A DNA stretch of 63,307 nt, counting the filler, from Craspedostauros australis (taxonomy: Eukaryota), in assembly GCA_030167865.1 (NCBI GenBank). It is 10 parts of 10 records of this genome, joined end to end, with 100 filler letters (N's around TTAATTAATTAA, not from the genome) between each part and the next. Parts side by side here need not be neighbours in the genome. Positions count along the whole stretch, not along the records: positions 52,049 to 57,957 come from JALAGF010004854.1; 9 more parts are not named here. One strand, 5' to 3'. The notes under the pieces were generated by a model, which saw only the letters and a program-made list of their open reading frames with translations, was not told where the DNA came from and did no database searches. Each line of letters starts with the position of its first letter. The first letter of the stretch is position 1. The position numbers and the translations under genes were made by a program. Below are positions 24,197 through 58,114 of this stretch, one piece after another.

Positions 24197-27100
24197 CCAC
24201 AAAGTCGCACTCGGCGGCTTACGTCCGTCAGCATGTCTCTGCCATCTGATACTCCACGGGCAGAGCTCGACTCACACGCGGATACTTGTTGTTTTGGCGA
24301 CACTGCGTACATCGTGCATCACACCGATCAAACCGTCACTGCAACCCCTTTTATTGACTCGCTTGGGTCCATCGATAATGCACCAATCGTCACAGCTGCG
24401 ATGGCATACGATGATCCAATTACATATCAAACATTCATTCTTTTCTTTCCACAATCGATCTACTTTCCTCGTCTTGAACATCCTTTGTTGTGCCCCAACC
24501 AAATGAGGGCTGCGGGTATAGTCGTGAATGATGTTCCTCTGCTCATGATCAAGGAGCACGAACGGAAGCCGGAAGACCACTCTGTGGTCTCATCCGACAA
24601 CGACCTACACATCCCTCTACGATTGCAAGGCACTGTATCCTACTTCCACATGAGGAAGCCAACACAACAAGAAGTCCAATCCGATCGTGACTGTATACAC
24701 ATCATGATGACACAAGAGGCCACATGGGACCCATCCCAGTGGTCGTCAGGGGACGACGAAGACGCCATTCGAGCGTCTCTTTCATCACAACGAACCATAT
24801 CGTTCATTAACATCCACGGTACACACACATCCAATCGAAAGGGGACTATCACACCCGATATCCTCGCACAACGCTGGCGCATCGGAACGGAAGCCGCTGC
24901 ACGTACCCTGGACGCAACAACACAATTGGCCGTTCGCGACTTTCGTCACTCATCAGGAACACGCCGTCTCAATCCTTACGCCATGCAACTACGATATCGT
25001 CGGCTCAACACCCAACTTTACGCCGACACCATGCACGCAAAGACCAAGTCGATTCGTGGCAATAAATGCGCCATGATCTATTGCACACCGTTTCACTGGG
25101 TCCGGGTGTACCCAATGGCGGAACGTAAGGAAGCACACCGTACACTTGACGAACTATTTCGCGATCACGGCATCCCACACACCATCATTCCTGACAATGC
25201 CAAGGAGCTCGTCGCTGGCGAATTCCGTCGCAAACTACACAAAGCACAAGTTTCCATTCGACCGATCGAAGCATACATCCACAATCAGAACAAAGCAGAA
25301 GCAACCATCCGTGAGCTTCGGCGCCATTATCGACGGCTGATGACCTCGACCGATACACCAGAGTACTTGTGGGACTACTGCTTCGAATACTGTGCCGAGA
25401 TACGCAGTCACACTGCACTCGCCATCCATGATCTTCACGGCGAGACACCGGCCACCATCTTGTCCGGTGACACTGCTGACATCTCCCACATTGCTGAATT
25501 CGGCTGGTTTGACTTCGTGTGGTATATTAACATCCAGGACGCATCCATGAACGTCAAGCAACTTGGTCGATACCTTGGGCCAAGTCGCTCTGTTGGTGAT
25601 GCAATGTGCTCGTACATCCTCACTGCCAATGGCGTTGTTGTCTCCAAATCCTCTGTTTTGCCTCTCTCTCACGACGATACACACAGCGACGTCATCACAC
25701 ACAAATGCAATGAATTCATGGATACACTTCGATCCAAATGGAAGCAACGAATGGAGGGCATCACAATCGACGACGATGGCGACGACGTTGATGATACTGC
25801 AGAAGACATCGCCATACTACAGAACACCGAACCATTGGAACAAATCATGGAACCAGACGATGTTGACAGTGCAACCTTCGACAAATACATCGCAACTAAA
25901 GTCATTCTACCGACAGGGGACGAAATGCAACATGGAACAGTCAAACAACGAAAACGAGACACAGAAGGCAACCTCATCGGCCGCTCTCATCCGAACCCTA
26001 TGCTTGACACCGCCCAATACGAAGTCGAATTCATTGATGGACACCACGAGGTGTTCAGCGCCAATCAAATCGCGGAGAATATCTACGCGCGTATCGATGA
26101 CGACGGATACACGACTGTGCTGATGGACGAAATCATCGACCACAAACGCTTGCCATCTGTTTCTTCTCCTTCTCCTCATTCCAAATCTACAAAAGGCTGG
26201 AAGCTCTGCATACGATGGAAGGACGGGTCCACATCCTGGATCCACCTACGCGACGCAAAAGAAGCCGATCCAGTACGCGTTGCCGAATACGCTGCAGATA
26301 ACAAGCTCGTCAACGAACCTGCATTCAAGTGGTGGGTGCCACACACCCTACGCAAACGACAACGCATCATCACGGCAACGAAGCGGCGACACGTCCGAAA
26401 GAACGAGATGTTTGGCGTGGAGCTCCCTACCTCCGTGCGTCATGCGCTTGCAATCGATGCAGCTACAGGCACGGATCTGTGGCGACAGGCCATCGCGAAA
26501 GAAATGAAGGCCGTGCGACCTGCATTCGACATCAAGGAACTGGACACTCCTGATCCCGTGGGCTACCAATACATGGAATGCCACATGATATTCGCTGTCA
26601 AGGTGGACCTCACAAGAAAGGCGCGACTTGTCGCTGGGGGACACATGACGGAGGCACCTGCAACAATCACATACGCGAGTGTGGTGTCACGCGAAAGCGT
26701 GCGCATTGCGTTTTTGATCGCCGCACTCAATGACCTGGATATCCTCGCTGCGGATGTCCAGAACGCTTACCTCAATGCTCCATGTCGGGAACGCATATAC
26801 ACACGATGTGGTCCGGAATTCGGATCCGACCAGGGGAAGATCGCAATCATTTGTCGGGCCCTGTACGGATTGAAGTCGAGTGGAGCAGCATGGAGAGCAC
26901 ACTTGGCAGAGACACTGCGCGATTCGTTGGGATTCACATCCTGCCGTGCCGACAGCGACGTCTGGATGAAGCCTGCTGTTGCGAGCAATGGGTCAGAATA
27001 TTACGAATACGTGCTCGTGTACACCGACGATATCCTTGCTGTATCCAAACAACCGCGACGCATCCTTGATGCGATTGACTCACACTTTTTCCTCAAACCG

Positions 27101-28055
27101 AGTTCCATTGGCCCCCCAACAACGTATCTTGGATCCACCATCTCACAATTCCACCTTACTGCCGATCCGTCACGCCCCAAATGGAGCATGGGATCACAAG
27201 AATACATCAAGTCCGCTCTCAAGATCGTCACCAAATACCTCAACGAACACAATCTGCGACTCAAGACAAAAGCACCCAGCGTCCTACCGAACAAGTATCG
27301 ACCGGAATTGGATGGATCACAATTGTGTGACGCCGAACAAATGACATTCTACCAGCAACTCATCGGTATACTGCGCTGGACTGTGGAACTTGGACGAATC
27401 GACATTTGCTGCGAGACCTCGATGATGGCATCGTACTGTGTTGCGCCACGAATTGGTCACTTGCATGCTCTCTTTCATATGTTCGCATACCTCAAATCTC
27501 ACGATCGTTCTCGCCTTGTTTTTGATGATGCATACATTGACAAACCGCCTGTGATGCAACCCAACTGGAACGATTTCTACCCTGACGCTCATGAGCAATT
27601 GCCTGCTGACATGCCACCGCCGCGCGGAAAGGAGGTTCAAATGACGTGCTTTGTTGATGCTGATCATGCAGGTGATCGCGTCACGCGACGCTCACGCACT
27701 GGTGTGCTTTTATTCCTGAATACATCACCGATACTATGGTACAGCAAGAAACAGAACAGCATTGAGACATCCACATTCGGCAGCGAGTTCACGGCACTCA
27801 AAGTCGCAACCGAGATCATCATCGGCATGAGATACAAACTCCGCATGATGGGCATTCCACTGGATGGCCCGGCGGACGTACGGGTCGACAATCAGAGTGT
27901 AGTATACAACTCCTCACTACCAGAATCACAATTGCGGAAGAAAGCCAATGCCATCGCATATCACTTCGTCCGAGAAAGCATTGCTGCGGGCATCTTGGTG
28001 GTCCAACATGAACCATCGGAAACCAATCTGTCCGACATGCTCACGAAACAACAAC
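24197..28055 (+). CDS. Copia pol (PR-IN-chromo-like-RT-RNaseH), in frame with gag
   Basis: Uninterrupted frame from the codon after the gag TGA (first ATG 24233) to the contig end. Confidence 0.9.
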
Positions 28056-31421: not shown

Positions 31422-31888
31422 CCTCGTCGTCCGTTGGATGCTGGTTTCTTTAGCACCCTTGCGCAATCGAGTGGCATCGCGGGGACAACAGTTCGCGTTT
31501 GTCGCAGGGCGTATCGTGTGATCAGCTCCCCAAAGGCGAAAGGTGACAACAACTGTTCTACCACGAGACAAGCAGAGTTCTACGAGGGGAAACACTGTTT
31601 CGTTGTTGCCAAGTTGCAGTTCTTTCACGCACCATGCTGACAATGATGGCAGTTGCCTTGCTGACATTTGTGTTTTCGCTTCATTTTGACATTTCCCGAC
31701 ACACGAAGAGCTCACAATTCGCAACAGCACCAAAATGTTACTTCCTCACGGAACGTTCGCAACTGTTGGTTTTGGGCTGATTGGCTCTCGCCCAAGAGGC
31801 ATGCTCACCAATGACCTTTCGAGGGAGTCATTGCGACAGTTTGCGTCTGTGTTCGGGACACATTCGGACATTGTACACATCTTGTGGA
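31422..31888 (+). pseudogene. 5' fragment of a PIF/Harbinger-like transposase plus upstream region, interrupted by an LTR
   Basis: 31735-31888 encodes MLLPHGTFATVGFGLIGSRPRG...RQFASVFGTHSDIVHILW, closely matching the N-terminus of the transposase at 55935. The ~200 nt upstream is also homologous. Confidence 0.85.
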
Positions 31889-32576
31889 TGTCGAAATGTG
31901 TGACATCAGTAATTCCCGATTGTACGGGACTGAACCAAAATAGAGTACAGAAACAACAAATACCCCCCCTATCGTCAACGTGGCAAGCGCATGATCAATC
32001 ACTCCTGAGCGTTACAGGAGCACGTTACTTTTAGGACTACGGGGGATTTCGACATGGTAACGTAAACCTGTGGCTTACGCCCGGGAGAGCGAAATAGTTG
32101 ACTGAGGAAGAATCAGACCGGACCAACTTCATGGGTTCGNNNNNNNNNNNNNNNNNNNNNNNNNNNNNNNNNNNNNNNNNNNNNNNNNNNNNNNNNNNNN
32201 NNNNNNNNNNNNNNCCGCAGGTGGAACATCGAGACCTGGGAGGGCGACCGCTTGCATCAGCGGTATACGAAAAAGGAACGTGACAACGGTTTCAAGCAGA
32301 GTGCGAGAGAGAAGCTGAAGGCCCAACGACCCCAGAAGAAGACACACAGAGACGGACAAGCACAACAACCAACCAACCAATCATCGAGTACAAATCGCGA
32401 ATTAGGGAGGGTGTCGAAATGTGTGACATCAGTAATTCCCGATTGTACGGGACTGAACCAAAATAGAGTACAGAAACAACAAATACCCCCCNATCGTCAA
32501 CGTGGCAAGCGCATGATCGATCACTCCTGAGCGTTACAGGAGCACGTTACTTTTGGGACTACGGGGAATTTCGACA
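31889..32576 (+). mobile_element. LTR retroelement with short LTRs (31889-32054 and 32412-32576); interior mostly hidden in an N gap
   Basis: Two ~166-bp direct repeats with TGTCGAAAT...ATTTCGACA inverted ends. PBS-like TGGTAACG directly after LTR1 and PPT AGGGAGGG directly before LTR2. Confidence 0.85.
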
Positions 32577-34468: not shown

Positions 34469-36841
34469 GTGCGGAGTGCATCTGCATATGGTGGATCGCT
34501 GCCAAAGAATTGGCGATCTGGTGACTCTTTCTGATTCTTCGCTACGGTGATGTTGGCGATGGCGGTGGCAGTGCTTGCAGCTGCTGCCCACAGACCATGC
34601 CTATACTCTTCGTCGAGCTGTGCTCCATTTAGCATGGAGCGGATCTTGGTGTAGAGGTACGCGAACTTGCATTCCACTCTACCGTTCTGCTGTGGTGTGT
34701 TCGATGCTATGTACTCGAATTTCACATTCAGTCCGGCATCGATGAGAATATCTTGCATGGATTTGTTCTCTCCGCTGTTATCACCTTGGAAGATGCTTTG
34801 TTGATCACCAGTCTGTGACTTGATCGTCTGGACGAATCGTTTGATGTATCCTGGTTAATCACTTTTGTTCTTGAGAAAGAAACTCCAGCAGTGATCTGTG
34901 CAGTCGTCCACGATCAGGGTCCAGTAGCGTTCATCTCCGAAGCGTATGTGTGTTGTGTAACTAATGTCAATGAAGAGTCGTTCGCCGCGGCGAGTTGCTC
35001 TCGGGATCGTCGCCTTCGAGATGTTCTTCACTCTCGTATTCGCGACCGCACAGTCGCGACACACCGGCATCTCGCTGATGATCTTCCATCCGTATTGAGC
35101 GGCTGTCCGCTTCATGGTCTCGAGTGGCGCGTGGCCGAGCATTCGATGCAAGTTCACTGCGCTGATCTCCTTGGATGGGCTCTTGATGATGGCTGTGCAA
35201 GCCTTGTCATCGTCAGTTGGCATGATGGGGTGCATCTGCACTCCTGTGATGAACCTGTTGGATGTGGGGAAGACTCGATCGAAGATGATCTTCTTTCCGG
35301 ATCCATTGATGATGTCCATCAGAATGCCGTTGCTACCGAGTTGGTAACCGTTGTACAGAGCCTTGTTCGTAGAGAAAAGGTTCACCGCCATCTTGGGTGT
35401 GTACTTCACATCATCGAGCCGGATGATGTGGCCAGTGTCGTCTCGTTGCTTGACCTTCAAGCGAATGGATCCCATTTTGGGAGAGTCAAGCTTCGTGCTG
35501 TCTCCCACTTGGACGAAGGACTTGACGTGCCGCATGTTGAAGAGAGCGGTGTCCAAGTTGACGATGTGACATGAAGCTCCACTGTCGGCAAGTCAGGTAT
35601 CCTTGTTGACGTTGTCCTTGTATTTGGTACTCAGCTCGTGGAGCTGCTCCATGGCTGCTGCAGCTATTTCGTTGTCAAAGCTGCCATCGTCGTCGTCTTT
35701 GTGAACTCCATCTTCGTTGTATGGATTATGGTGATCTTCATCATCCATGTCGTCAGGTAGTTGTGCATAGTCCGATGGAACCGTACTGCTCCGGTGAGTT
35801 CTGGTGACTGGATCGAAAGGCGTCACCCGTGGTCGCTCACGCAGTAGCACATGCATGCATCCTCCCAGGATGTAATGCAGATCCGTCTCTGGAATCGTTT
35901 CTGTGTTCTCTGCTTCCAACAATCGGTTGATGATGACTGAGTTGGCGAGAATCTCTTCGATGGATCTGAAGTTCTCAGACAGGATGGATCTTATCATGTT
36001 CACCCATATTGGTCTGAGCACTCCTTGTGCGACTCCTGGGAACATCTTCACTCCTGCTTCCATTACGGCATCGAAGATGAGTTGCTTCTGAATTATCAAT
36101 GCTGTTGCTGTTGCGTAGGGAATCGTATCATGTCGGTGGATGTGATTCGAGTTGTTGGGACTCTCGATCGGTGGGAATTCAATGTTCATTGGGTAAACGA
36201 CACGCTCGTTTGGATTGAAGCTGTCGTCTGGGTGATCTTCTGTTTCATCACTGTCGTCTTCGTCGAAGATGCCCGATCTGTTGTTCCCTGCCGCTGGAGT
36301 GGGCAGCGCTGCGCCGCCATTTGTTTCGTCTCGGCCTCTGTCATTGTTGTTGGGTTCGTCGTCATCTTCTTCACTCACGGCCTCCTCGATGTCGCTATCG
36401 ATGGCCTCGTTGCCCATCTCAGCTCTGTTGCTGTATGGACCGATCAGGTTGTTTGCGTTGAAGCAGCATTCGTAGCTCACTTCGCGTCTTGGATCCACCT
36501 CGTGGATGATGGGCTCTTTGCTGAGCCACTCCGGGACGATCTCATCGTCCTGCACTTCGTCGTCACTCCCGACACACTCGAAGTCATCGAAGAAGGAGTC
36601 TTCGATGTAGTCATCGGACACCAACATGCAGAGCAGCATGTCTTTCGCTGAGAGTACCATCTCGTGCCCGCTCTTGTCGTGTCCTTGTGTTGCCGTGTTG
36701 GCCTGCTCGTCGGCCTTCTTCTTTTCGTTGAACTTCTTCTTTCGGCACTCCGCCTCGCGATGCCCGAAGATGCCGCAGTAGTTGCACTTGCCGTTGAAGC
36801 CGCTTCCCTTGTTGCGGTTGTTGTTACGCTTTCCGTTCATC

Positions 36842-36892
<51 letters not shown>

Positions 36893-37719
36893 TTCTTGTT
36901 GTTCGATTTCTTGCGTTCTGGGCAATCGGTGGATCTGTGACCATACACACCACAGTTGTGGCAGGTCCCCTTGAAGTTACCGGTGCTTGTGAAGCCGGTG
37001 TCGTTGCTCTTCGTGTTACTGTCTTGGAAATCGTCGACGTATGCCTTTCCGCCTTGATGCGTGGCGTGTGCTTCATGGAGTACTCCTCTGATCGTGTTGA
37101 TGGTGACCACTGTCGGATTGAACGTGAGTTGGTGGTTGAAACTCACGACGTGTGTTCTGTATTCCACGCTTACTGTACTGAGGATCTGCATGATCATCTC
37201 CTCGTCCGTGATTGTGTATCCGACATCGTGGAGACGTGAGCGTAGTATCTCGAGTCGCGTGATGTAGACGTTGGGGTCCGAGTCTCTCTTCATTTTTTCG
37301 TTATTGAATTGACGCTTGAGTTTGATCTTCGTCACCGCATCGGATGGTCGGAACTTCTCCGCGAGAACGTTCCATGCCGTGTGTGGATTCCCCTCAGGGT
37401 AATCGTCGGAGATGCATTGGTTGATGTACTGGATGGCCTGCTTGCCCTTTCCCTTCTCTGCATCCATCATGAGGATCAGATCGCTGAAGCAGTCGCATCC
37501 CAGTTCGTAGGTTTCTTCCATCGCTTCCTTGGCCTCGCCGGCGGCTGCCGCGATCTCGCTCATGGTTGGCACCTTGGTCTTGCCCAACATCACGTCTCTC
37601 GTCTTCTGTGCACGAGCGTATGCCTTCGCTTGGGACTCCCATGCGCTGTAGTCTTCCTGTTCACCGCTGAACATCGGCGCCTTGATGCGTCGCTTGTTCG
37701 TGTTGGCTGGTGTCGCCAT
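34469..37719 (-). mobile_element. Ty1/Copia gag-pol 5' part (second family), inactivated by two in-frame stops
   Basis: Gag (FSGEQEDYSAW, UBN2-like helices), two CCHC knuckles (CHNCGVYGHRSTDC; CNYCGIFGHREAEC), protease DT*LADSGASCH, integrase HHCC-like LHRMLGH...CRDC, and core FIDIS...DNSGE...PQQNGRVE. Stops at 35593-35595 and 34855-34857 are in the same frame. Confidence 0.9.
36842..36891 (-). repeat. (AAC)n microsatellite encoding poly-Asn between the two zinc knuckles
   Basis: About 16 tandem AAC codons. Confidence 0.9.
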
Positions 37720-38822
37720 GTTGATTCGTTGTTTCGTTGTTGGTGCGCTCGCGCCCTTGATTTCCGTCTGTTTCTGTGTTGTCACTTTTTCGATTTTCGC
37801 CTGTTGTTGCGCGGAGATTGTTTTCGTCACAAATTCTCCTCCTGGTGGTGTCTCACTTTTACCACCCTGTTTGGCTGTGCGAATGCTCTTCGTCACACCA
37901 GTCTCCTCTTGCTTGANNNNNNNNNNNNNNNNNNNNNNNNNNNNNNNNNNNNNNNNNNNNTTAATTAATTAANNNNNNNNNNNNNNNNNNNNNNNNNNNN
38001 NNNNNNNNNNNNNNNNGGATTAAATCACGAGGCTGTGCTTCAGGGTCATTTTCGGAGTTTCTCCATGATTCTCCCAACAGTGAAACTCGAAGCTATGACC
38101 TACGAAGAGTTCCTGAGAACGAAAATATGAATCGAGAACTTTCTTCTCGGGACAACAGTTGTCATCGCCAATACAGAAAGCTCTGATTGGCTGGGTCAGT
38201 CACATCGCATATTGACTAATTCGACCCATTTTGCCGGGTGTCCCGGGTCCCCCTTCCAAAAACGACTGGACAATGACGGTGGCGACTGTGATGACGATGA
38301 CCGCAACTCGTGCACAAGGACCGTCCACGTTCTCCCTCCACATCGACAACCATTTCAGTACCAGTGCCAGACGAGCGCTGTGATCTTCCTACTATACGAT
38401 CACTATCCAACGCTGCCTTTGCTTCATTCCTCCCTGATTGTTGAGAGGTTGCATCCAAATCAAACGGAACGTCATTGTGAACCAGTCTTCATTCACATAC
38501 TCAACTCAACTCAACTCAACTTAACTCCACACACCTCCACTCAAGGATAGATACCAACGCGCAAACAACGAATCAACGAACAAACCGAATCCTCGCCAAA
38601 CCGCACAAAGCATCTCGTTTGTGTCTTTGTGGGCGCTAACACGAACACCAGAATCAGTCAGCATTCATCGCCGTCTTTGTCATTGCCTTTGGCATTGTCA
38701 TTGTTGTCTATTTTGCACAACCAATCCATAGTCGTACCACAGCACTCTACTCTGAAGCGAAACGAAGTGAGGCGAAGCACACCACATCATCCATTCCACA
38801 CCCACCAACGCACCACCGCATC

Positions 38823-40661
38823 ATGGCCGTCCATCATCGCAACCGCGTGCAGAACCCGTTCGCACGTGGAGCACGTCGCACGGTCGGGTATTCCGACTAC
38901 AGGTACCGACAGATGCATGGCAGTGCTGGAAAGTCATCGGGGATGCGGTCCAAATTGGTCTTTTTGGCGGTTGCGGCAATCGCGTTGCTCATCTATTCCG
39001 CCATCGTTGCACCAGCATCGCCCGATACTTACAGCAGCAGTCTTATCAGGAACAATGCTGCTATGAGTCAGACCACAACAGCCGCAACAACAGCCGCAAC
39101 AACAGCCGCAACAACAACAGCCGCAACAACAACAGCCGCAACAACAACAGCCGCAACTACTACTACTACTACCACCACGACAGTTGCCGCCACCACCACT
39201 CCACCCAACACCGTGGCTCCCGGCAATCAGAGTGATGGAGGGTCTCAGGCTCCGCCACCAGTACAACCAGGAGAGAATCAAGCGCAGCTTGGAGGTACGG
39301 GCACAAGTGGCCACGGCCAACCATCCAATCCGGGGCTACCAGATTCTGGTGAAGGAAATTATGATGACACAGACTACTTTGAAGACAAAACGGACCTTCT
39401 CACCAACAAAGACGGCAAGCAACATGATCCTTCTGGCGCAGAGATGGACCCTTCCGTGGCTACGTCTGGAGATGACACTGATCCTGATGCTGGCAACAAT
39501 GGAGACCCAAATGATCCTGCCACCGCCAGCACTGGAGACCTAAATGATCCTGTCGCTGCCAGCACTGGAGATCCTGCCACCGCCAGCACTGGAGACACAC
39601 CTGATCCTGATGTTGGCGACAATGGAGACCCAAATGATCCTGTCGCTGCCAGCACTGGAGACCCAAATGATCCTGTCGCTGCCAGCACTGGAGATACACC
39701 TGATCCTGCCACCGCCAGCGCTGGAGACCCAAATGATCCTAATGTTGGCGACAATGGAGATCCAAATGATCCTGCCACCGCCAGCGCTGGAGACCCAACT
39801 GATCCTAATGTTGGCGACAATGGAGATCCAAATGATCCTGCCACCGCCAGCGCTGGAAACCCAAATGATCCTAATGTTGGCGACAATGGAGATCCAAATG
39901 ATCCTGCCACCGCCAGCACTGGAGATACACCTGATCCTAATGTTGGCGACAATGGAGACCCAAATGATCCTGCCACCGCCAGCGCTGGAGACCCAACTGA
40001 TCCTAATGTTGGCGACAATGGAGATCCAAATGATCCTGCCGCCGCCAGCACTGGAGACACACCTGATCCTGATGTTGGCGGCAATGGAGACCCAAATGAT
40101 CCTGCCGCCGCCAGCGCTGGAGACCCAAATGATCCTGCCACCGCCAGCACTGGAGATACACCTGATCCTGCCGCCGCCAGCGCTGGAGACCCAAATGATC
40201 CTAATGTTGGCGACAATGGAGACCCAAATGATCCTGCCACCGCCAGCACTGGAGATACACCTGATCCTGCCGTCAATTCTGGCAACGCAACTGATCTAAC
40301 TGACAACGTGTTGCCCGATGTGACGAGTTCAACGCTAGTTTCTGAAGGCTCGAATAGCTCAAAGGTCGTAAAACCCACACCAGAAGCAACTGAGGATGTG
40401 GTACCCACAGAAGCACCAAAACCGAACACAACAAAGGAATCCATTGCAGAGAGCCACCCTGCTCATCTCGACGGCAACAGCACCAGCATTTCCACCAACG
40501 CTACAGCGATTACGGACGAAGGTGCGGGACAACCTCAAACAAACGAGACATCGACCAACACGACGAAGGAAGGGAATCTCCGTGGAACAGCTGATGACGA
40601 CAAGAACAAAAAAGCAGGTGGATGGCCATTCTCGGGCATGTTCTCCAAGACGCAGAGCTAA
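38823..40661 (+). CDS. Type II membrane/secreted low-complexity protein with a Thr/Ala tract and acidic GDPNDP tandem repeats
   Basis: 612-aa intronless ORF. TM segment LVFLAVAAIALLIYSAIVA, TTAA repeats and 11/22-aa repeats. Confidence 0.8.
   Translation: MAVHHRNRVQNPFARGARRTVGYSDYRYRQMHGSAGKSSGMRSKLVFLAVAAIALLIYSAIVAPASPDTYSSSLIRNNAAMSQTTTAATTAATTAATTTAATTTAATTTAATTTTTTTTTVAATTTPPNTVAPGNQSDGGSQAPPPVQPGENQAQLGGTGTSGHGQPSNPGLPDSGEGNYDDTDYFEDKTDLLTNKDGKQHDPSGAEMDPSVATSGDDTDPDAGNNGDPNDPATASTGDLNDPVAASTGDPATASTGDTPDPDVGDNGDPNDPVAASTGDPNDPVAASTGDTPDPATASAGDPNDPNVGDNGDPNDPATASAGDPTDPNVGDNGDPNDPATASAGNPNDPNVGDNGDPNDPATASTGDTPDPNVGDNGDPNDPATASAGDPTDPNVGDNGDPNDPAAASTGDTPDPDVGGNGDPNDPAAASAGDPNDPATASTGDTPDPAAASAGDPNDPNVGDNGDPNDPATASTGDTPDPAVNSGNATDLTDNVLPDVTSSTLVSEGSNSSKVVKPTPEATEDVVPTEAPKPNTTKESIAESHPAHLDGNSTSISTNATAITDEGAGQPQTNETSTNTTKEGNLRGTADDDKNKKAGGWPFSGMFSKTQS
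39468..40272 (+). repeat. Coding minisatellite: 33-bp units of two subtypes forming a 66-bp period
   Basis: The GTTGGCGACAATGGAGA motif recurs at 39744, 39810, 39876, 39942, 40008 and (one mismatch) 40074. It encodes GDPNDPATASA-GDPNDPNVGDN. Confidence 0.92.
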
Positions 40662-47089: not shown

Positions 47090-47914
47090 GGTTAATGCGT
47101 CGACCGATTGTTTTTGATGTTGCCGATGCTGATGATGATTTTTTATGTTTCTGATCCAGCTGCGCTATGTTGCATCCGAGCGGAGAAGGTAATTGACGAC
47201 GAACCAGTTGTCTCTCGAGCTTCCCGAGAATCCGGATGCGTACGAAAGAGCCAGCTCTGCTTGCGCAGGCACTGGATGCTTCGCTTGTCCCTTCGTCATC
47301 GTGGCGTCCTGTTGGAATGTGTTGGTATCGTGGCGCTCAAAAGGTTGTGGCTTGTGGTTTTGTTGTCGCGTGTCATTTGTTGGTCTTGGAGGCTTTTTCT
47401 TTCTTCCACCAAATCACGACAAAAGTCGCGCATCCAAGGTTTCGAAAGTTGCGGTAAATTAATATTAGTTTTGTTTTCGAGGCTGACCGTCGACACACGG
47501 AAAGGTCTGACGATCAAAGGGAGACTGTGATGCGGATCTCACGACCAAAAGGCAAAGTAAAGCAGGACAACAAGGAGATGAGCTGGTGCGGACCGGAGGG
47601 GGGATTCAAATCCTTCGTTGACGCATGGTGTGGGGTCTGTGCCTTTGTGGCTGCACATGAGTAGTGGAGTGTGCTGGTGGGTGCAACTCCAGTGGCGCAG
47701 AGAGTAGCTGCCGTTGCGCTGTTTCTCGTTGCGATCCCGATTTCCAATGGCCATGTATAATAGTCGCGCTCTGGATCACTTGTTTTTACAGCTTGTGATG
47801 TGTTCTTTCGTCAACATGGGAAGCGCGGTAAAGACACCACATGTGTCGATTTGTACTTTATTCACGCTTGAAGCGTGTTCTGCCGTGCTTTGTTCGTTGG
47901 GATCATCGACTCAT

Positions 47915-48110
47915 GCGACTACTAAAGCACGCCTTTCCCGTGTCGGCATGACGTTGCGCTTATTAACGTACGTGCTCGACATGTCCTGCACTGTGTGCCA
48001 ATGCCAACGACGTCCGCTTTGCTCTCCTTCCACCCTTTCGTGTCTGCTCCAAGACAGCGCCATTCCCAAACCCGCTACGTCACGTTGCCACCTTTCGACC
48101 GTGACAGCCC
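47915..48110. repeat. Dispersed repeat, homologous in reverse orientation to 57730-57940
   Basis: Shared runs such as AGCACGCCTTTCCCGTGTCG and CGTGCTCGACATGTCCTGCACTGTGTGCCAATG. Confidence 0.75.
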
Positions 48111-48670: not shown

Positions 48671-50386
48671 CATGAAAACAATCGCAAGAAGGCTCGCGCC
48701 GTATGTGATGGATCGACCCGTGGCGGCAGTGTGCGCGTTTTTGGTCACACCTACGCGGCGACTCCGGATCTCACCGAGTTTCGCATCCTGGTGGCCATTG
48801 CTGCAGTACAAGGACTGCTGGTGTATGGGGCCGACGTTGCCAATGCGTTTGCGGAGGCACCTGCCAGTGCGCAGCGGTACTACATGCGGGCGGATGATCA
48901 GTTTCGCACCTGGTGGCAACACAAGCATGGCGAGGTTCTGGATCGACGCATGGTGGTACCTGTTCTCAAGAATCTCCAGGGCCATCCTGAGGCGCCCCGA
49001 CAGTGGAGTCTACACGTCAACCGTCTTCTCAAGGACATGGGATTCTCTGCCACTACGCAAGCGCCGTGTTTGTACACCGGTGAGCTCTGTCAGCACAAAG
49101 TTTACGTGCTTCGGCAGGTGGATGACTTTGCAGTGGCAACTCGCGATGAGGCTTCCTACGTCAGATTCTGTGACATGCTCGATGCTCGTCTGAATCAGCC
49201 CATCACTCGACACGGTCTCTTCGCGCATTACAATGGGCTGGATCTCATCCAGGCAAGGCGGCATGTGACGGTGCACTGCTCTACCTACATTGACAAGGTG
49301 CTACAACGGCACGATTGGCAGGGACTGAAGTCTTCACAACGCCTACCCATGCGAGCGGATAATGGGCACGTGCGCCAGTTGGATCAAGCTGTCCTACCTG
49401 ACTCGGATGCCGAGCGACAACGTCTGCAGTCCGAGTTCTTCAACTACCGACAGGCCATTGGCGAGCTCATATGGGCCATGGTTTCGTGTCGACCTGACAT
49501 ATCGTTCCCGGTGGTCAAGCTGAGTCAGTACTCCATGAACCCTGCGCGTGTTCACTACGAGGCAGTCAAGTATCTCTTTCGGTACATTGCGGCCACCAGG
49601 GAGTTTGGGGTTACATACTGGCGACAGTCTCCTCTCATGCAACTTGCGGGTGTTCCCAACCCGCGACGGCTGTCCCCTGCCGGCGACAAGCGTCACGACA
49701 CAACGGATCAGGGCACTATCCAGGCAACTTCGCTGTATGCCTACGTGGATGCTGATTGGGGCGCCGACACCAAGCATCGTCGGTCTACAAGCGGCATTGC
49801 TTTCCTTCTGGGTGGCGCAGCTGTCGCGTGGAAGACTCGCGTGCAACCTACCGTCTCTCTCAGCACTTCCGAGGCCGAGTTCCTTGCCGCCAGCGATGCT
49901 GGCAAGATGGCGCTCTGGCTTCGGTCTATTCTCGATGAGATTGGCGTTGCGCAGACACATGCGACGCTCATCTACGAGGACAATCGAGGCGCAAGAATGA
50001 TGGCTAACGCCAACCAGCCGACACGGAACTCCAGGCACATTGACATTCGCNCATTTGCCGTCAGCGATTGGGTGGACAGAGATCTTATCCTGATCACCGA
50101 CGTGCCTTCGGACCTCAATGCCGCGGACGTGTGCACCAAACAGACGCCTGTGGTTCTGTTCTATCGGCATACGGATCTGCTCATGGGACGCATACCGCCT
50201 TTCTACGTACAGCCATGAGTGCTCCCCATGGAGTGTGGTGATCCCTGTCTTCTCTACGACAGAGTCGATTATTTCCGCTAGCTTACGCCAGCGTGGGGGG
50301 GGGGTGTTGGCATCCGTACACCCGTACGATGACAGACGTCATCAGCAGCAGCAGCAGCGAACACAACAAAAGTCATCACCACTCTG
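48671..50386 (+). mobile_element. Ty1/Copia 3' fragment (third family): RT-RNase H, PPT and start of the 3' LTR
   Basis: Open frame 48671-50218 with KKARAVCDGS, ADVANAF, LQGHPEAPRQW, LRQVDDF, RPDISFPV, YVDADWG, LSTSEAEF, YEDNRGA, NAADVCTK. G10 PPT at 50295-50304, followed by TGTTGG (LTR start at 50305). Confidence 0.93.
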
Positions 50387-51948: not shown

Positions 51949-52141
51949 NNNNNNNNNNNNNNNNNNNNNNNNNNNNNNNNNNNNNNNNNNNNTTAATTAA
52001 TTAANNNNNNNNNNNNNNNNNNNNNNNNNNNNNNNNNNNNNNNNNNNNGACAGTTCATCGACGTAGTGTGAACATGGTATTACGGTTGGTCACTAGTTAT
52101 GTTATGTTGGTTGTTCGTGCTGCATGGGACTCACTCCAGTC

Positions 52142-54085
52142 TTACTCAGTCTCTGTGGTTTCGCCCTCCTTGGTGTCGGGGTTCTCCGGTGGTGCGTCGA
52201 CCTGCTCGGTCTTGGGGCTCACCGGCGGCCAGTAGTACTCCTCCTCCTCGTCGTCGTCCGACTCGCAGTCAATCTTAATCAACTCAGCAACACGAATCCT
52301 GCGAATGACTGTGGCGCAACGCTGAGTGCTCGCGCTGGAGACAACAGCGGAAGGCACCACGACGGGGTCAGGAATATCAGCGCGACGAGCACGTCTGCGA
52401 GCAGCAGCGCGGCGGGAAGCACGAGTAGACGTGTCCATCGAACCCACAGTCACACGAGATGATTGACGAGCGGACTGCACAGTGAAAAGAAAGAACCCAA
52501 GGATGTGTGAGTGAACAAGTGGGAGTTGTGAAGAACAGAAGACGAAACCGGTAACGAAAACACTTACTCTTGCAGAATGTCCTGATCCGGTAGCTCGGCG
52601 ACCACGAGCAACTGTCATGCGAACAGGAGCAGGACGGGAAAATGTGCATTCGTCATCGGATGAACTGTAGTCATCCTCTGTACGGTGAGCACGATTGTTG
52701 AGCTTAAGTTTGCTACGCCTCTCTGTTCGCCCGTAACGCGCCAAGTTGGTGGCGCAATGGGTGACCGGGCTCGCGCTGTAGACCGGCACCATGCGCACGA
52801 TCAGCAGGGGCGCATCAGTGTGCACATCGCTCTCCCGATCATTGATGCCAACAGAAGGATTGATAAAATCAATCCCATGCATGGCTTGGTCAACAGTCAT
52901 TTCAAACCGGTCACTGACTTGGATCGGCAGAAATTCCTTGTGCACGCGGACAGGACGTGGGTGGCCGCGACACATGTTGCGAACAGCAAGCGCGTAGGAT
53001 TCGCTGCGTTCTCGTTGCCCGCGGAAAGAACGAATCTTGAGGTGCGGAGGAACCGTTTCGTTGAGGCGCTCAAGCAGCTCCTTGTCGGTGGCGGCGGATG
53101 ACGCGAGCTCTTGGTTCTGATCGAGCTTGACCTCCAACACGCGCCCATGCTCCTTGATCAGCACGTTGACATCGCCGTAGCAAGTCCCGCCAGGCAGCTC
53201 AAACGTGATTTCGAACACCTCCCCACGACCGGCTGGGGAGTACGCGTGGCGCACAGCGGGCAAGAAAATTTCGGTGTTCTTGTTCATCCACGTTTCAATC
53301 GCACGCGCACGACTGGGGCCCTCTTGCAAGGGTGTCCCAGTTACAGTGTTCGTCACCAGCATGCCACGACTTGCAGCAACGCCAGGAGGAGCAGCAGGAG
53401 GAGAAGCCACATGCGGTGGAGGGGCATGAACAGACGAGGGCTCAGTACGAGCAGCAGTCATCGTGTCCATGGCGTTGTAGAGAGGTCTTGGGGTTGGTGA
53501 TGGATGGGTGGGGATGGGCGATGCCATGTGCGCCGTGTTTGGTTCGGCGGAGGGACGGGCTGTTGTTGGCATCGCGGCTGGAGCAGTGGGTGCCGGGCTG
53601 TAGGCCATGCGCGAAAAAGCGTCCATGGTTTCCTTCGCGTCTTCGGGTTGCTGCGTTGATACTTTGTTGATCGCTTTGTCAAATTGATCTTTGTACGCAG
53701 TTGCGTTCGCGACAAGATCGGAAACGTTGGGAGAGAATTTTGTATCCATGCGCACTGAGAAGGGTGAGAATGATGCGGTGAATAAACGAGTAACAATTGA
53801 TAACTTGTAGGCATGCACGCGTAATCACGTACCGGCCTTAGTCGCCTTCTTCGCGCGGTTTCTCTTCACGGTACTGCGCAAATTCCGAAGGTTCCGAGCG
53901 AAGTTGCGCCTGGACAGGAATGCCAAATCGGGATTCTCTTTCCACACATTCCCCGGGGTCTTCTCCATCGGAATTTCGCCGCTCTGGATCTTCGCCCTCA
54001 ACTCGCGGATCTGAGGGTACAGCTGCTCGTTCCACTCCGCTCCATCGGAACTGTCTTGTTTCGCCGGAGCGGCCTTCCTCGGCAT
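52142..54085 (-). CDS. Putative accessory gene of the Harbinger-like element (helical DNA-binding-like N-domain + alpha-crystallin/HSP20-like domain), 3 exons
   Basis: Exons 54085-53833, 53754-52568 and 52474-52142. Introns are GTACGT..TCAG (phase 1) and GTAAGT..GCAG (93 nt, in frame). N-domain W...IRELRAKIQSGEIP...PGNVWKENP...FARNLRNLR; middle FEITFELPGG...DVNVLIKEHGRVLEVK. Confidence 0.65.
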
Positions 54086-54793
54086 GTTGCGGCGGCACTT
54101 ACTTGTGAATCGTGAACCAGGGATCGATTTTGTATCAACGTCATTTGTGAGATAAAGACTTCCATTCCGATGCAACCCACCATTCGTGTGCGACGCGCGA
54201 TGAACTGGCGCCTTGCGACGCTGACAGGATTGGCGGAGCAATGGACCAGCGCGTTGCAGCGTGATAAACCGAAACACAAAAATACGGGATACGTAGACGT
54301 CTACTATACAGTACTAGAGCTCAACGCATCCGTTTTGCCTTCGATTTTCCCTTAGTACATCTGTTTTGATATACTTGTTTCCAATTAATGTATACATTGA
54401 ATGAACATAGCTGTTTCCTAGATCATAAAGAACTATACCCCTACGAGTATAAGTGTATATCTAGCGTTCGTCTACATTCAACGCTCAACGTATCTTTTTT
54501 GATTTGCTCCTGTTAGTCGACGACTGTGGAGAAACATGGGTCTTCTGTCATGTGAGACACTGGGCCGTTACATACACATGTAATTACGCGCATGTGTTGG
54601 CTCTTCACCAACTGCTTCGTGAGGAACGACATGGGGAGCTCGTTTGTGGGGCGCCGACCAGACAATGATGCGAGGTGCGCGTCCGCTTCACCATGTGCTT
54701 CTAAGTGCAACACGTCGGGATAGACATCGACACGACATGGACCTGCGACAAGCACGACATGGACATGCGACAGACACCGCGCAGGATCGGCAC

Positions 54794-54848
54794 CGACGAG
54801 CAAGCGACGAGCAAGGAACGAGCAAGCGACGAGCAAGCGACGAGCAAA
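54794..54848 (+). repeat. 11-bp tandem array 1 (CGACGAGCAAG x5)
   Basis: Read directly from the sequence. Confidence 0.92.
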
Positions 54849-55151
54849 TTGCTCAAAATTACCGTGGATTTGTCACTGTGACATGCTGCGAAAACGGCCA
54901 TACTACGGTGTCTAGTCTAGTTTATGTTCAAGGGCGATAGAGTGCACGTTTTAAAAATTAGAATGCATGAATGTAAGCGCACGATCTACATCATGGTAGC
55001 GCACGTATTTGATCTGGATTGCAACATCATTCTGAAACACAGTTGATAACAGAGGTTTGCATCGCGGCGTCTCCAGACTGATCACCTACGATACTGCGAC
55101 ATCTCTCTATATGTAAAGTGCGGTAAGCGACATGTCGATTTTTCAAAAAAA

Positions 55152-55217
55152 CGACGAGCAAGCGACGAGCAAGCGACGAGCAAGGGACGAGCAAGCGACG
55201 AGCAAGGGACGAGCAAG
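55152..55217 (+). repeat. 11-bp tandem array 2 (C/GGACGAGCAAG x6)
   Basis: Same unit and orientation as array 1. Confidence 0.92.
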
Positions 55218-55928
55218 GAACGCGACTTCAGCGCGACGTGAGCACGACGTGAGCACGACTAGTACAAGACCGATTCACGACAAGGGTAAGACTCCACGAC
55301 AGTGCGCGGTCCGATGTTGTGTATTCATGGCTGCATGTCCATGATTGTTCATGTTGAGCGCAAGGTCAATTCTGGACTCCCCAGACAGAGGTCAGCAGCA
55401 CGCGTGCAAGAATGATACAGCACACAGGAGGACATTCAGCTTGATACACGTTTCCTTCCCTTCCAGAGCGTGCTTGCTTGCAGTGCCTGGGCGAACGGAG
55501 CAGCGCGCACCTTCGTTCAAGAGAGCCTCCCACGAAGTCGTGGATGTGCTCTGATCATTACACTTAATACGGCAACGAAGGAATTATTTCGCTCTTTCGT
55601 CCGTTGAATCCTGCCTTCCTCGGCACCTTGGTCACAGTGATGCACAACTGAGCGCGGCATGGGAGGACAACAGTACACTTTGTCCGCCTTCTCTGCGATT
55701 ACCGCGGAAGAGCGCCCTCGCTTGATTGGCTCCCCCACAGCAAAGCACGGAACAACTACTGTAGCTGGAGAGCATGCGAAGCCCCACAAGAACGCTCGTT
55801 TCGTCATTGGCAAGTCGCAGTTGACTTGCGCACAATTAGTACTAGTTCAACGGTTACTTGTTGACATTGTTGTTTTTCGCCTCATTTTGACATTTCTAGT
55901 TGCACAAGATCTCATAATTCGCAACAAC

Positions 55929-56948
55929 ATGAGAATGCTTCTACCAAGTGGAACATTTGCCACCGTGGGGTTCGGGCTGATTGGGTCACGCCCAAGAGGC
56001 TTGGACACGAACAACCTTTCCAGGGAGGCACTGCGACAGTTCGCATCCGTGTTCGGAACACACCCTGACATCGTGCACATCTTGTGGAACGAGCTCTGCC
56101 ACGCGCGAGCTCTGCCACGCGCGGCGAAACCAAAACATCTCCTGTGGACGTGCGCGTTTCTTCGTCTGTACATGTCTGAGACTGCTCTGGCCACCATGTG
56201 CAAGTGTTCGGCCAAAACACTTCGGAGATGGATGTGGCTGATGATGACAGCCGTTGAAACCGTTAAGGATCGCATTGTAAGTACTAATTTATTCGCACAC
56301 ACGAACTACGATACAAAATTCTGTTCACTGCATTCACTCACACATGATTCTGATTTTTCCTGGTACCGCTCCAATTGACAGATTGTCTGGAACCGTCGTT
56401 TCGTTGGCGCAAGTCACGATGCAAAAGCGCTTGTCACTGTGGACGGGACTGACATGCGAATCACCGAACCCAAACCGTTTAGCCACAAGTGGTACTCGTT
56501 CAAGTTTCGCGCTTCTGGTGTGCGCTATGAGTTGGCTGTTGCGATTTCCACTGGTGAGATCGTTTGGGCGAATGGGCCCTTTCCGTGTGGCCTGCTGAAC
56601 GATCTCTCGATCTTCCGCCTGGGACTGAAACCGAAATTAGTACAGCACGAAGTCGTCGTTGCAGATGCCGGATACCGTGGGGACCCTTGTGTGTTTCCCC
56701 CAACTTTTCGCGCGGATGGCATCATGCGGTGCCGCCACGAAACGGTCAACAGGCGAATCAAGCACTGGCAATGCATGCACCTGAAGTGGCGGCACCACGT
56801 GGACAAGCATCGCCTTGCATTCAACGCGGTTGCCATCCTCACCCAAATTGAATTGAGCAACGGCTACCCCTCGTTTGACGTGGTTGTCGCGATGCAAGAA
56901 GCACGCGAACGTGCCTTCGCCCGTGCAGATGCACAACACACACACTAA
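55929..56948 (+). CDS. PIF/Harbinger (IS5-like, DDE_Tnp_4) transposase, 2 exons, apparently intact
   Basis: Exons 55929-56276 and 56382-56948 (GTAAGT..ACAG intron). HTH-like PKHLLW...LRLY.SE...KTLRRW; catalytic TVDGTD, KWYSFKF, GPFPCG..ND, VADAGYRG, RHETVNRRIK. Confidence 0.9.
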
Positions 56949-58114
56949 TTAGCGCATCCCACCTAGTACAAACAAATAGCCAGAATTTAACAAGCATAAA
57001 ATTATAATCGTAGATGTCCTCCCTTGTCTGTTGTAGTGAGTTCGTGTTTGGTGTCCTGGTTTGAAAAAAGGCAAGCACAGCATCGCACTGACTGATTCAT
57101 CGTGTAAGTGCTGTGCTTTACTGTGGGGAACACTATTTGTCAACAATGCATCTCGGACCCACTGACAGTGCAGTGTGGAGAACGGGTAAGGACGTTCGTC
57201 CCCATGGGGTGACATGCTTCCTTGATCCAAAGAGGATGGACTAGGCAACCTGACACGAACTTGTACGCAAGAGAGTCCTGTTACGATACAGTGAATACAT
57301 CAGAGAAACACCAGGTTGCCGTGGAACCCCGTGGACGCGGAGTGGAGGTGGTTGGGCGCATGGGGCACCACCGCCACCACCGCCACCACCGGGGACAGGA
57401 GAGACACAAACGCTGTTGCCACCACCAACTGATGCAGCGCACATGACGAACAGCACGCGAACTGATTGTGCTGCCTTGAAACAAGAACGATGGTGGAGGA
57501 AACAAACGACTTTGCGTGGGCGGAGTGTGACAGTGGACGAACGCGTTGATTGAACTGCAGAGTATGATGCATTATTCTGTGTATGTTGTACGACCACCGT
57601 GATGCATCTGAACAGCAATGTGAGATGGAACCGCCTGGGACAAAGGCACAAAAGTTACCCCGCGCGAAGAAACGTACGAGTTGGAAAGACGATGTCCACC
57701 TGAGGACATCTCGCCGACAAGAAAGGGGCAAATGTGTCCCACGGCGATGATGAAGGAAAGGGGCGATGCCATGGGTCGTGGGTCTGGAAATTTGCGTGTG
57801 TTGGAGCAGACGCGACAGGGGTGGAACGAGCGCAAAGCGGACATCACCGTCATTGGCACACAGTGCAGGACATGTCGAGCACGTGCGTAAATGAGCTCGA
57901 CGTCATGTCGACACGGGAAAGGCGTGCTCAAGTAGTCCCATTTGTGCATGACTTTACNNNNNNNNNNNNNNNNNNNNNNNNNNNNNNNNNNNNNNNNNNN
58001 NTTAATTAATTAANNNNNNNNNNNNNNNNNNNNNNNNNNNNNNNNNNNNNNNNNNNNCCTGGTCGCGACAACTCACGATGAGACTGCCGATAGGTTTCAG
58101 AGGGCCTTTACGCT

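Follow-up and report, generated by a model that had tools for sequence, protein, structure and literature searches.

Harbinger transposons with two open reading frames (ORFs) are textbook elements. In the account of Han et al. (2015, PMC4482050), canonical PIF/Harbinger (PHIS) elements carry two ORFs and are marked by terminal inverted repeats (TIRs) and a 3-bp TWA target site duplication (TSD); in the ISL2EU group, the second ORF encodes a YqaJ-domain protein. According to Duan et al. (2016, PMC5339849), the Myb-like proteins of Harbinger elements diverge much faster than the transposases. The same paper describes the Arabidopsis proteins HDP1 and HDP2, a Harbinger-derived pair in which the DNA-binding partner uses its C-terminal part to contact the N-terminal part of the transposase-type protein, and which belongs to the IDM complex together with the alpha-crystallin domain (ACD) proteins IDM2 and IDM3. 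For the diatom Thalassiosira pseudonana, Harbinger-like elements were reported by Maumus et al. (2009, PMC2806351). Here, we analyze a stretch of 63,307 nt from the diatom Craspedostauros australis (assembly GCA_030167865.1), referred to as the window, in which small contigs follow one another, each separated from the next by an N44-TTAATTAATTAA-N44 spacer. On one contig of 5.9 kb (52049-57957), we find a divergent pair of genes, i.e., a plus-strand transposase gene and a minus-strand gene that we refer to as the partner gene. Our verdict is that this locus represents an ordinary element of the Harbinger family, or part of such an element, and that its partner is an orphan that probably binds DNA.

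The locus shares several properties with canonical PIF/Harbinger elements as these are characterized in PMC4482050, including a DDE_Tnp_4 domain, an intact catalytic triad, an N-terminal region conserved in the transposase family, an adjoining second gene and multi-copy status. It differs from them in that the second gene lacks a Myb/SANT domain that can be detected at the sequence level, is devoid of relatives, encodes 590 amino acids (aa) and contains a long Pro/Ala-rich stretch. The contig ends too near the two genes to show either the TIRs or the TWA duplication of the canonical elements. The ISL2EU group, as presented in the same account, is a precedent for a non-Myb partner in the superfamily; however, neither YqaJ nor any other known domain was found by Pfam in the partner described here. 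As in the HDP1/HDP2 pair of PMC5339849, a Harbinger transposase-type protein occurs beside a putative DNA-binding partner. By contrast, IDM2 and IDM3 are described there as separate host ACD proteins, whereas at this locus an ACD is undetectable and the third of the Trp residues important in HDP2 is missing. Finally, as reported for T. pseudonana (PMC2806351), a Harbinger-type transposon is found in a genome with Copia-type retroelements, a likeness at the level of description.

The predicted spliced product of the transposase gene comprises 304 aa, starting at ATG 55929 (or 55935), and its second exon matches DDE_Tnp_4 (PF13359) in Pfam with an E-value of 1.6e-7 and 31.5 bits against a cut-off of 24.8. 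The catalytic triad, with D at 56442-56444, D at 56664-56666 and E at 56739-56741, is conserved without exception in all five sequences of an alignment that consists of this gene, three metagenome proteins and the product of one metagenome contig. The three metagenome proteins are full-length relatives of 346-363 aa with 39-45% identity; the fourth relative, which is encoded on a 1.1-kb contig (1132 bp), is 45% identical. A W-x19-W motif and the motif HLLW..KT.R.W in the N-terminal part are likewise shared with the relatives. Moreover, at exactly the position of the intron in this gene, the three metagenome proteins contain an unrelated stretch of 20-32 residues that ends in Q. Because a phase-0 intron with a terminal CAG would give such a stretch if read through, we infer that the intron position is conserved and that the family is eukaryotic. 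Related transposases were not found in a scan of viral contigs. Thus, as read from the alignments, the gene encodes a spliced transposase of the DDE_Tnp_4 type with an intact D-D-E triad and its family, which is small, comprises proteins of ~350 aa that have been seen in metagenomes only. We hold it to be very probable that this transposase is of PIF/Harbinger origin, and the intact, spliced plus-strand DDE transposase reported in a preliminary description of the locus is thereby borne out.

Elsewhere in the window, the 5' region of the transposase gene occurs a second time, as a diverged and truncated copy. The short contig 31422-32139 aligns to 55592-56093 from its first base up to position 31892, with 78% nucleotide identity over 233 nt and 89% identity at the aa level. 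Synonymous differences affect 23 of the 53 codons that the copies share and non-synonymous differences affect 8, and the nucleotide differences are distributed over codon positions 1, 2 and 3 as 9/4/25. Because the differences are mostly synonymous, both copies must have diverged under selection for the protein. The comparison also bears on the start of the gene: the upstream in-frame ATG at 55659 is absent as a conserved site in the second copy and lies in a stretch of lower GC content at third codon positions (GC3), and therefore the start at 55929/55935 is favored. Judged by this alignment, the transposase is a multi-copy coding family with at least two copies in the assembly, as expected of a transposon family.

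Several further observations concern the transposase gene and its second copy. A perfect 16-bp tandem duplication, CGAGCTCTGCCACGCG (2.1 copies, 56090-56123), lies inside the coding sequence; the frame is open across it, and the W-x19-W spacing is that of the homologues. The homology of the second copy stops exactly at this duplication (56093/31892). Unrelated sequence begins at this breakpoint, and transposase homology never resumes. The unrelated sequence lies between the arms of a perfect inverted repeat of 10 bp, ATGTCGAAAT (31888-31897) and ATTTCGACAT (32046-32055), which was noticed by eye and could be due to chance. At the 3' end of the gene, a 557-nt contig from one public run, the kind of which is guessed to be RNA, matches 56911-57467 identically; it covers the final 38 nt of the gene, stop codon included, and 519 nt beyond. 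Should the run be RNA, the 557-nt contig would represent a 3' untranslated region or a neighboring transcript.

The partner gene is readable from the sequence as a three-exon gene with canonical splice signals and a product of 590 aa (Table 1). The frame around exon 2 is open for 560 codons, which, from the frequency of stop codons at ~52% GC, would be far beyond chance. Intron 2, which is in frame and free of stop codons, is a probable intron with a GC content of 0.44 compared to 0.57-0.61 in the exons. The divergent three-exon gene and the sequence motifs quoted for it previously (the basic N-terminal domain, FEITFELPGG..VLEVK, KEFLPIQV and LLIVRMVP) are all present. The Pro/Ala linker that had been proposed is likewise recognizable as a Pro/Ala-rich stretch, in which P and A account for 37 of 90 residues (exon-2 residues 51-140) and which is probably disordered.

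Table 1. Coordinates of the two genes and associated features in the window.
Feature	Position	Strand	Details
Contig with both genes	52049-57957		5909 bp (JALAGF010004854.1); N44-TTAATTAATTAA-N44 spacer at either side
Transposase exon 1	55929-56276	+	116 aa; N-terminal part common to homologues P0006-P0008
Transposase intron (predicted)	56277-56381	+	105 nt; GTAAGT..CAG; in-frame stop inside
Transposase exon 2	56382-56948	+	188 aa + stop (56946-56948); DDE_Tnp_4
Partner exon 1	53833-54085	-	84 aa + 1 base; ATG at 54085; pI 10.7; W18, W48
Partner intron 1 (predicted)	53755-53832	-	78 nt; GTACGT..CAG; phase 1
Partner exon 2 (P0001)	52568-53754	-	395 aa; helical start, then Pro/Ala-rich stretch, then region without assigned fold
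Pro/Ala/Ser/Thr-rich stretch	53333-53602	-	exon-2 residues 51-140; 20 P, 17 A, 21 S+T of 90
Sole ACD-like piece	53105-53218	-	exon-2 residues 179-216, VFEITFELPGG..VLEVKLDQNQEL; ACD profile columns 58-93; chance level
Partner intron 2 (probable)	52475-52567	-	93 nt; GTAAGT..CAG; in frame, stop-free, pyrimidine-rich
Partner exon 3	52142-52474	-	110 aa + stop (52144-52142); Arg-rich basic patch, then acidic tail DDDEEEE
Short-repeat zone between genes	54731-55259	+	inside the 1.84-kb interval that separates the start codons of both genes
Second, diverged, truncated transposase copy (5' region)	31422-31892	+	other contig
Dispersed repeat, right contig end	57780-57941	+	84.7% identity over 163 nt to 47913-48073 (minus strand, other contig)

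The exon-1 unit of the partner was described previously as basic, helical and DNA-binding-like. The unit is basic, and in an AlphaFold2 model with a mean predicted local distance difference test score (pLDDT) of 73.4, and of >80 for residues 20-70, it forms three helices (24-35, 44-56 and 59-83). The three-helix bundle is thus predicted, but the fold is generic. When the model was compared to 48,161 chains with VIA-align, the best match, a P element transposase, had a Z score of 5.4, and only two chains reached Z ≥5. Among the 50 matches listed, ~22, as judged from the titles of the entries, are homeodomains, Myb/GARP domains (PHR2, ARR1 and LUX) or transposase/helix-turn-helix domains with Z scores of 3.8-5.4; for helical models, however, Z scores of 4-5.4 may merely reflect a common helical arrangement. 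Foldseek gave nothing significant against the Protein Data Bank (PDB), with one match at an E-value of 5.7. Exon 1 contains W18 and W48, while a third Trp is missing and helix 3 has F62, L66 and L69; the third Trp of Myb-type domains can be replaced by aromatic or aliphatic residues. W18 and W48 are spaced like W19 and W48 in HDP2, which are the first two of the three residues (W19, W48 and W71) that HDP2 is stated to require for DNA binding (PMC5339849). Altogether, the modeled exon-1 unit weakly resembles the DNA-binding domains of homeodomain proteins, Myb proteins and transposases, with Z scores up to 5.4. DNA binding by exon 1 would be compatible with the model.

The region between the two genes contains short tandem repeats. 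An 11-mer, CGACGAGCAAG, forms two arrays on the plus strand, with 4.9 copies at 54794-54847 and 6.0 copies at 55152-55217, and exact matches to GACGAGCAAG in the window fall inside these arrays in nine of nine cases (11 of 22 if up to one mismatch is allowed). Other repeats in this region are a 22-mer (1.9 copies, 54731-54772) and AGCACGACGTG (2.7 copies, 55230-55259), along with related short repeats containing CGAC. The CGACGAGCAAG arrays could be binding sites of the N-terminal domain or promoter elements, an idea for which they are candidates. Besides the two genes, the intergenic region and the right flank contain 27 other ORFs, none of which had a Pfam match above the cut-off or represented a canonical Myb ORF, and therefore the minus-strand gene is the only candidate for a second protein. 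For a complex of transposase exons 1 and 2 with partner exon-2 residues 141-395, structure prediction returned a score of 0.00 in both runs, with a partner pLDDT <50 in ESMFold2, a result that speaks neither for nor against binding.

Based on these findings, we suggest that the contig is a copy, or an internal part, of a PIF/Harbinger-superfamily transposon with a second protein that assists the transposase; for this statement as a whole, we put the chances at about even. In this model, the host would be a eukaryote with short spliceosomal introns, and the element would move by a cut-and-paste mechanism. The 590-aa divergent gene would encode the second protein of the element and be the fast-evolving counterpart of Harbinger ORF1. 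Its basic three-helix exon 1 would bind DNA of the element, with the CGACGAGCAAG arrays or the unseen ends of the element as candidate sites, and the Pro/Ala-rich stretch would provide a flexible linker. By analogy with HDP1/HDP2, the C-terminal half of the partner, with its Arg-rich patch and acidic tail, may contact the transposase and aid its nuclear entry.

A number of observations weigh against this model, in addition to those already given for exon 1, and several of them also favor the reading of the minus-strand gene as an unrelated, lineage-specific orphan host gene that lies accidentally beside a copy of a Harbinger-type transposase. It is only by adjacency that the partner gene is a putative member of the element. 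In comparisons between the left contig end, the intergenic sequence and the flank on the right, no TIR that would enclose both genes rose above the shuffled background. The multi-copy status covers the transposase only: the partner gene lies outside the extent of the second copy, which stops short of it and therefore is silent on linkage, and the window contains no second copy of the partner gene. The GC3 values of both genes fall inside the spread seen among host genes of the window, and therefore composition does not tie the two genes together. Myb/SANT domains gave no Pfam match in the partner even at E ≤10; exon 2 had no match to any family at this threshold, and exons 1 and 3 had only sub-threshold matches to domains of unknown function (DUFs). 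Relatives were not found either. An exhaustive phmmer search with exon 2 of 1.84 billion representative proteins returned none at E ≤0.001, word-indexed searches of 5.8 billion clusters found none among 8000 candidates for exon 2 and none among 30 longer-protein candidates for exon 1, and of 81 pattern matches of exon 2 in metagenome contigs, none was confirmed. Among PDB sequences, exon 2 had one match only (E-value 0.59) and exon 1 had none, and in the ESM Atlas the best scores of 0.78 (exon-2 residues 140-345) and 0.84 (exon 1) are lower than scores often obtained with shuffled proteins. By sequence, the partner is an orphan gene. Finally, all three introns of the two genes are predicted from sequence signals alone, and the 557-nt public contig, which covers 56911-57467 only, spans none of them. 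Nevertheless, the divergent two-gene layout is that of Harbinger elements, the partner begins with a very basic (pI 10.7) predicted three-helix domain, and the contig offers no other candidate partner ORF. Moreover, the protein libraries did not return the sequence of exon 2 itself; therefore, this genome, and probably its close kin, are seemingly missing from them, and the absence of partner relatives accordingly counts for less. We consider an orphan host gene unlikely, but not far-fetched. A third reading, that both genes form a co-domesticated, immobile Harbinger-derived host pair like HDP1/HDP2, ALP1/ALP2 or HARBI1/NAIF1, agrees with the two intact reading frames, with the failure to find TIRs in the contig, and with the recurrent co-domestication of the two Harbinger proteins described in PMC5339849, PMC9710019 and PMC7282668. 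However, a truncated, diverged second copy in the assembly is as expected for a transposon family, and the DDE triad is intact. The missing TIRs also carry little weight because the contig is not long enough to reveal where an element would end: a TSD is not visible, and the ends may lie outside the contig, because its left end is only 93 bp past the partner stop codon. A domesticated pair therefore seems improbable to us.

We find it least probable, to the point of being very hard to credit, that the partner combines, in one protein, a DNA-binding domain and a genuine but strongly diverged ACD beta-sandwich with insertions and in this way would serve as an oligomerizing/anti-silencing adaptor of the element's own. 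The preliminary description had advanced this idea because the partner was thought to follow the strand pattern of the ACD. In its favor, exon-2 residues 179-216 resemble F-x-R-x-F-x-LP...GVL-x-V-x-LPK, and a low-confidence single-sequence AlphaFold2 model of exon 2 (mean pLDDT 36.2, predicted TM-score (pTM) 0.21) contains a beta-hairpin at residues 196-209 with a pLDDT of ~50; otherwise, the model consists of a helix (223-233) and coil. The Pfam HSP20 family (PF00011) gave no match in the partner at E ≤10. We also assembled 31 ACD sequences into a profile, namely 30 HSP20 domains of proteobacteria, drawn from a search with a match in 47 of 61 sampled genomes, and E. coli IbpB; this set is of low diversity, with an effective number of 1.35. 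When 2002 sequences were scanned with this proteobacterial profile and HMMER was run unfiltered, the region of interest (exon-2 residues 140-345) received 4.0 bits (E-value 6.2, rank 11 of 2002). Just 10 of 2000 shuffles of the region outscored the real sequence, the best of them at 17.8 bits. In hhalign, the probability of a match to the ACD alignment was 2.6% for the whole exon (P 0.017) and 4.6% for the region (P 0.009), with 36 of ~100 columns aligned; the P values and the small share of shuffles that scored higher count in favor of the idea, the low probability and the short alignment against it. HMMER and hhalign both place VFEITFELPGG..VLEVKLDQ on the F-x-R-x-F-x-LP...GVL-x-V-x-LPK end, i.e., in the C-terminal third of the ACD rather than on its first strands as proposed; nothing upstream in the partner aligns with the preceding two thirds, and neither program used KEFLPIQV or LLIVRMVP. 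The searches described above yielded no homologues for a profile of the partner. An ACD in the partner was thus not supported by Pfam HSP20, the custom HSP20 profile or hhalign, and on current evidence, its likeness to the ACD is a single motif of 36-38 residues at chance level. Because the ACD is unsupported, the notion of a self-contained targeting and anti-silencing module has lost its basis. The Arabidopsis background invoked for this module is correct in that HDP1/HDP2 and IDM2 belong to the same IDM complex; however, in the yeast two-hybrid and split-luciferase assays reported in PMC5339849, no interaction of HDP1 or HDP2 with either of the two ACD proteins (IDM2 and IDM3) was seen. In the literature on Harbinger transposases and HSP20, we found no description of a transposon-borne ACD, and only the HDP1/HDP2 paper links both terms; because an ACD is undetectable here, this locus does not fill that gap. 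Related to this idea, the partner might be an accessory protein of a new, non-Myb/SANT type with a basic three-helix head for DNA binding, a long flexible linker and a new folded module, possibly a strongly diverged ACD/p23-like beta-sandwich. We regard this as highly doubtful; if true, it would represent a transposon-encoded adaptor or chaperone-like factor without a described counterpart.

The other contigs of the window contain both genes and repeats. Ordinary eukaryotic genes on the other contigs include an ALG9-like mannosyltransferase, ClpB-type AAA proteins, two cytochrome P450 genes and a PfkB kinase. Three other contigs (24197-28054, 35596-37914 and 48674-50215) carry ORFs of Copia-type retroelements (RVT_2; gag and zinc knuckle), and therefore the small contigs of the window are repeat-rich. 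A 181-bp satellite (8.1 copies, 87% matches) makes up nearly the whole of the neighboring contig at 50487-51948, and a 673-aa ORF without a Pfam family holds a tandem repeat with periods of 66 bp and 198 bp at 39479-40269 (10.6 and 4.0 copies, respectively; 85% matches). The two copies of the dispersed repeat at 57780-57941 and 47913-48073 lie in opposite orientations at the ends of two different contigs; the assembly break at the right end of the 5.9-kb contig probably arose because the contig runs into this repeat. Rfam identified no RNA families in contig 52049-57957.

As the evidence stands, the locus calls for an ordinary transposon annotation, and a transposon-borne ACD that echoes the IDM complex of plants is unsupported. 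If the partner gene does encode the second protein of the element, it would add a very divergent type of ORF1 to the PIF/Harbinger superfamily, and would do so from a poorly sampled algal lineage. The two genes would then also offer a small, tractable pair for the study of transposase targeting, in which the three-helix head of the partner and the CGACGAGCAAG arrays, as its possible binding sites, may be considered together.

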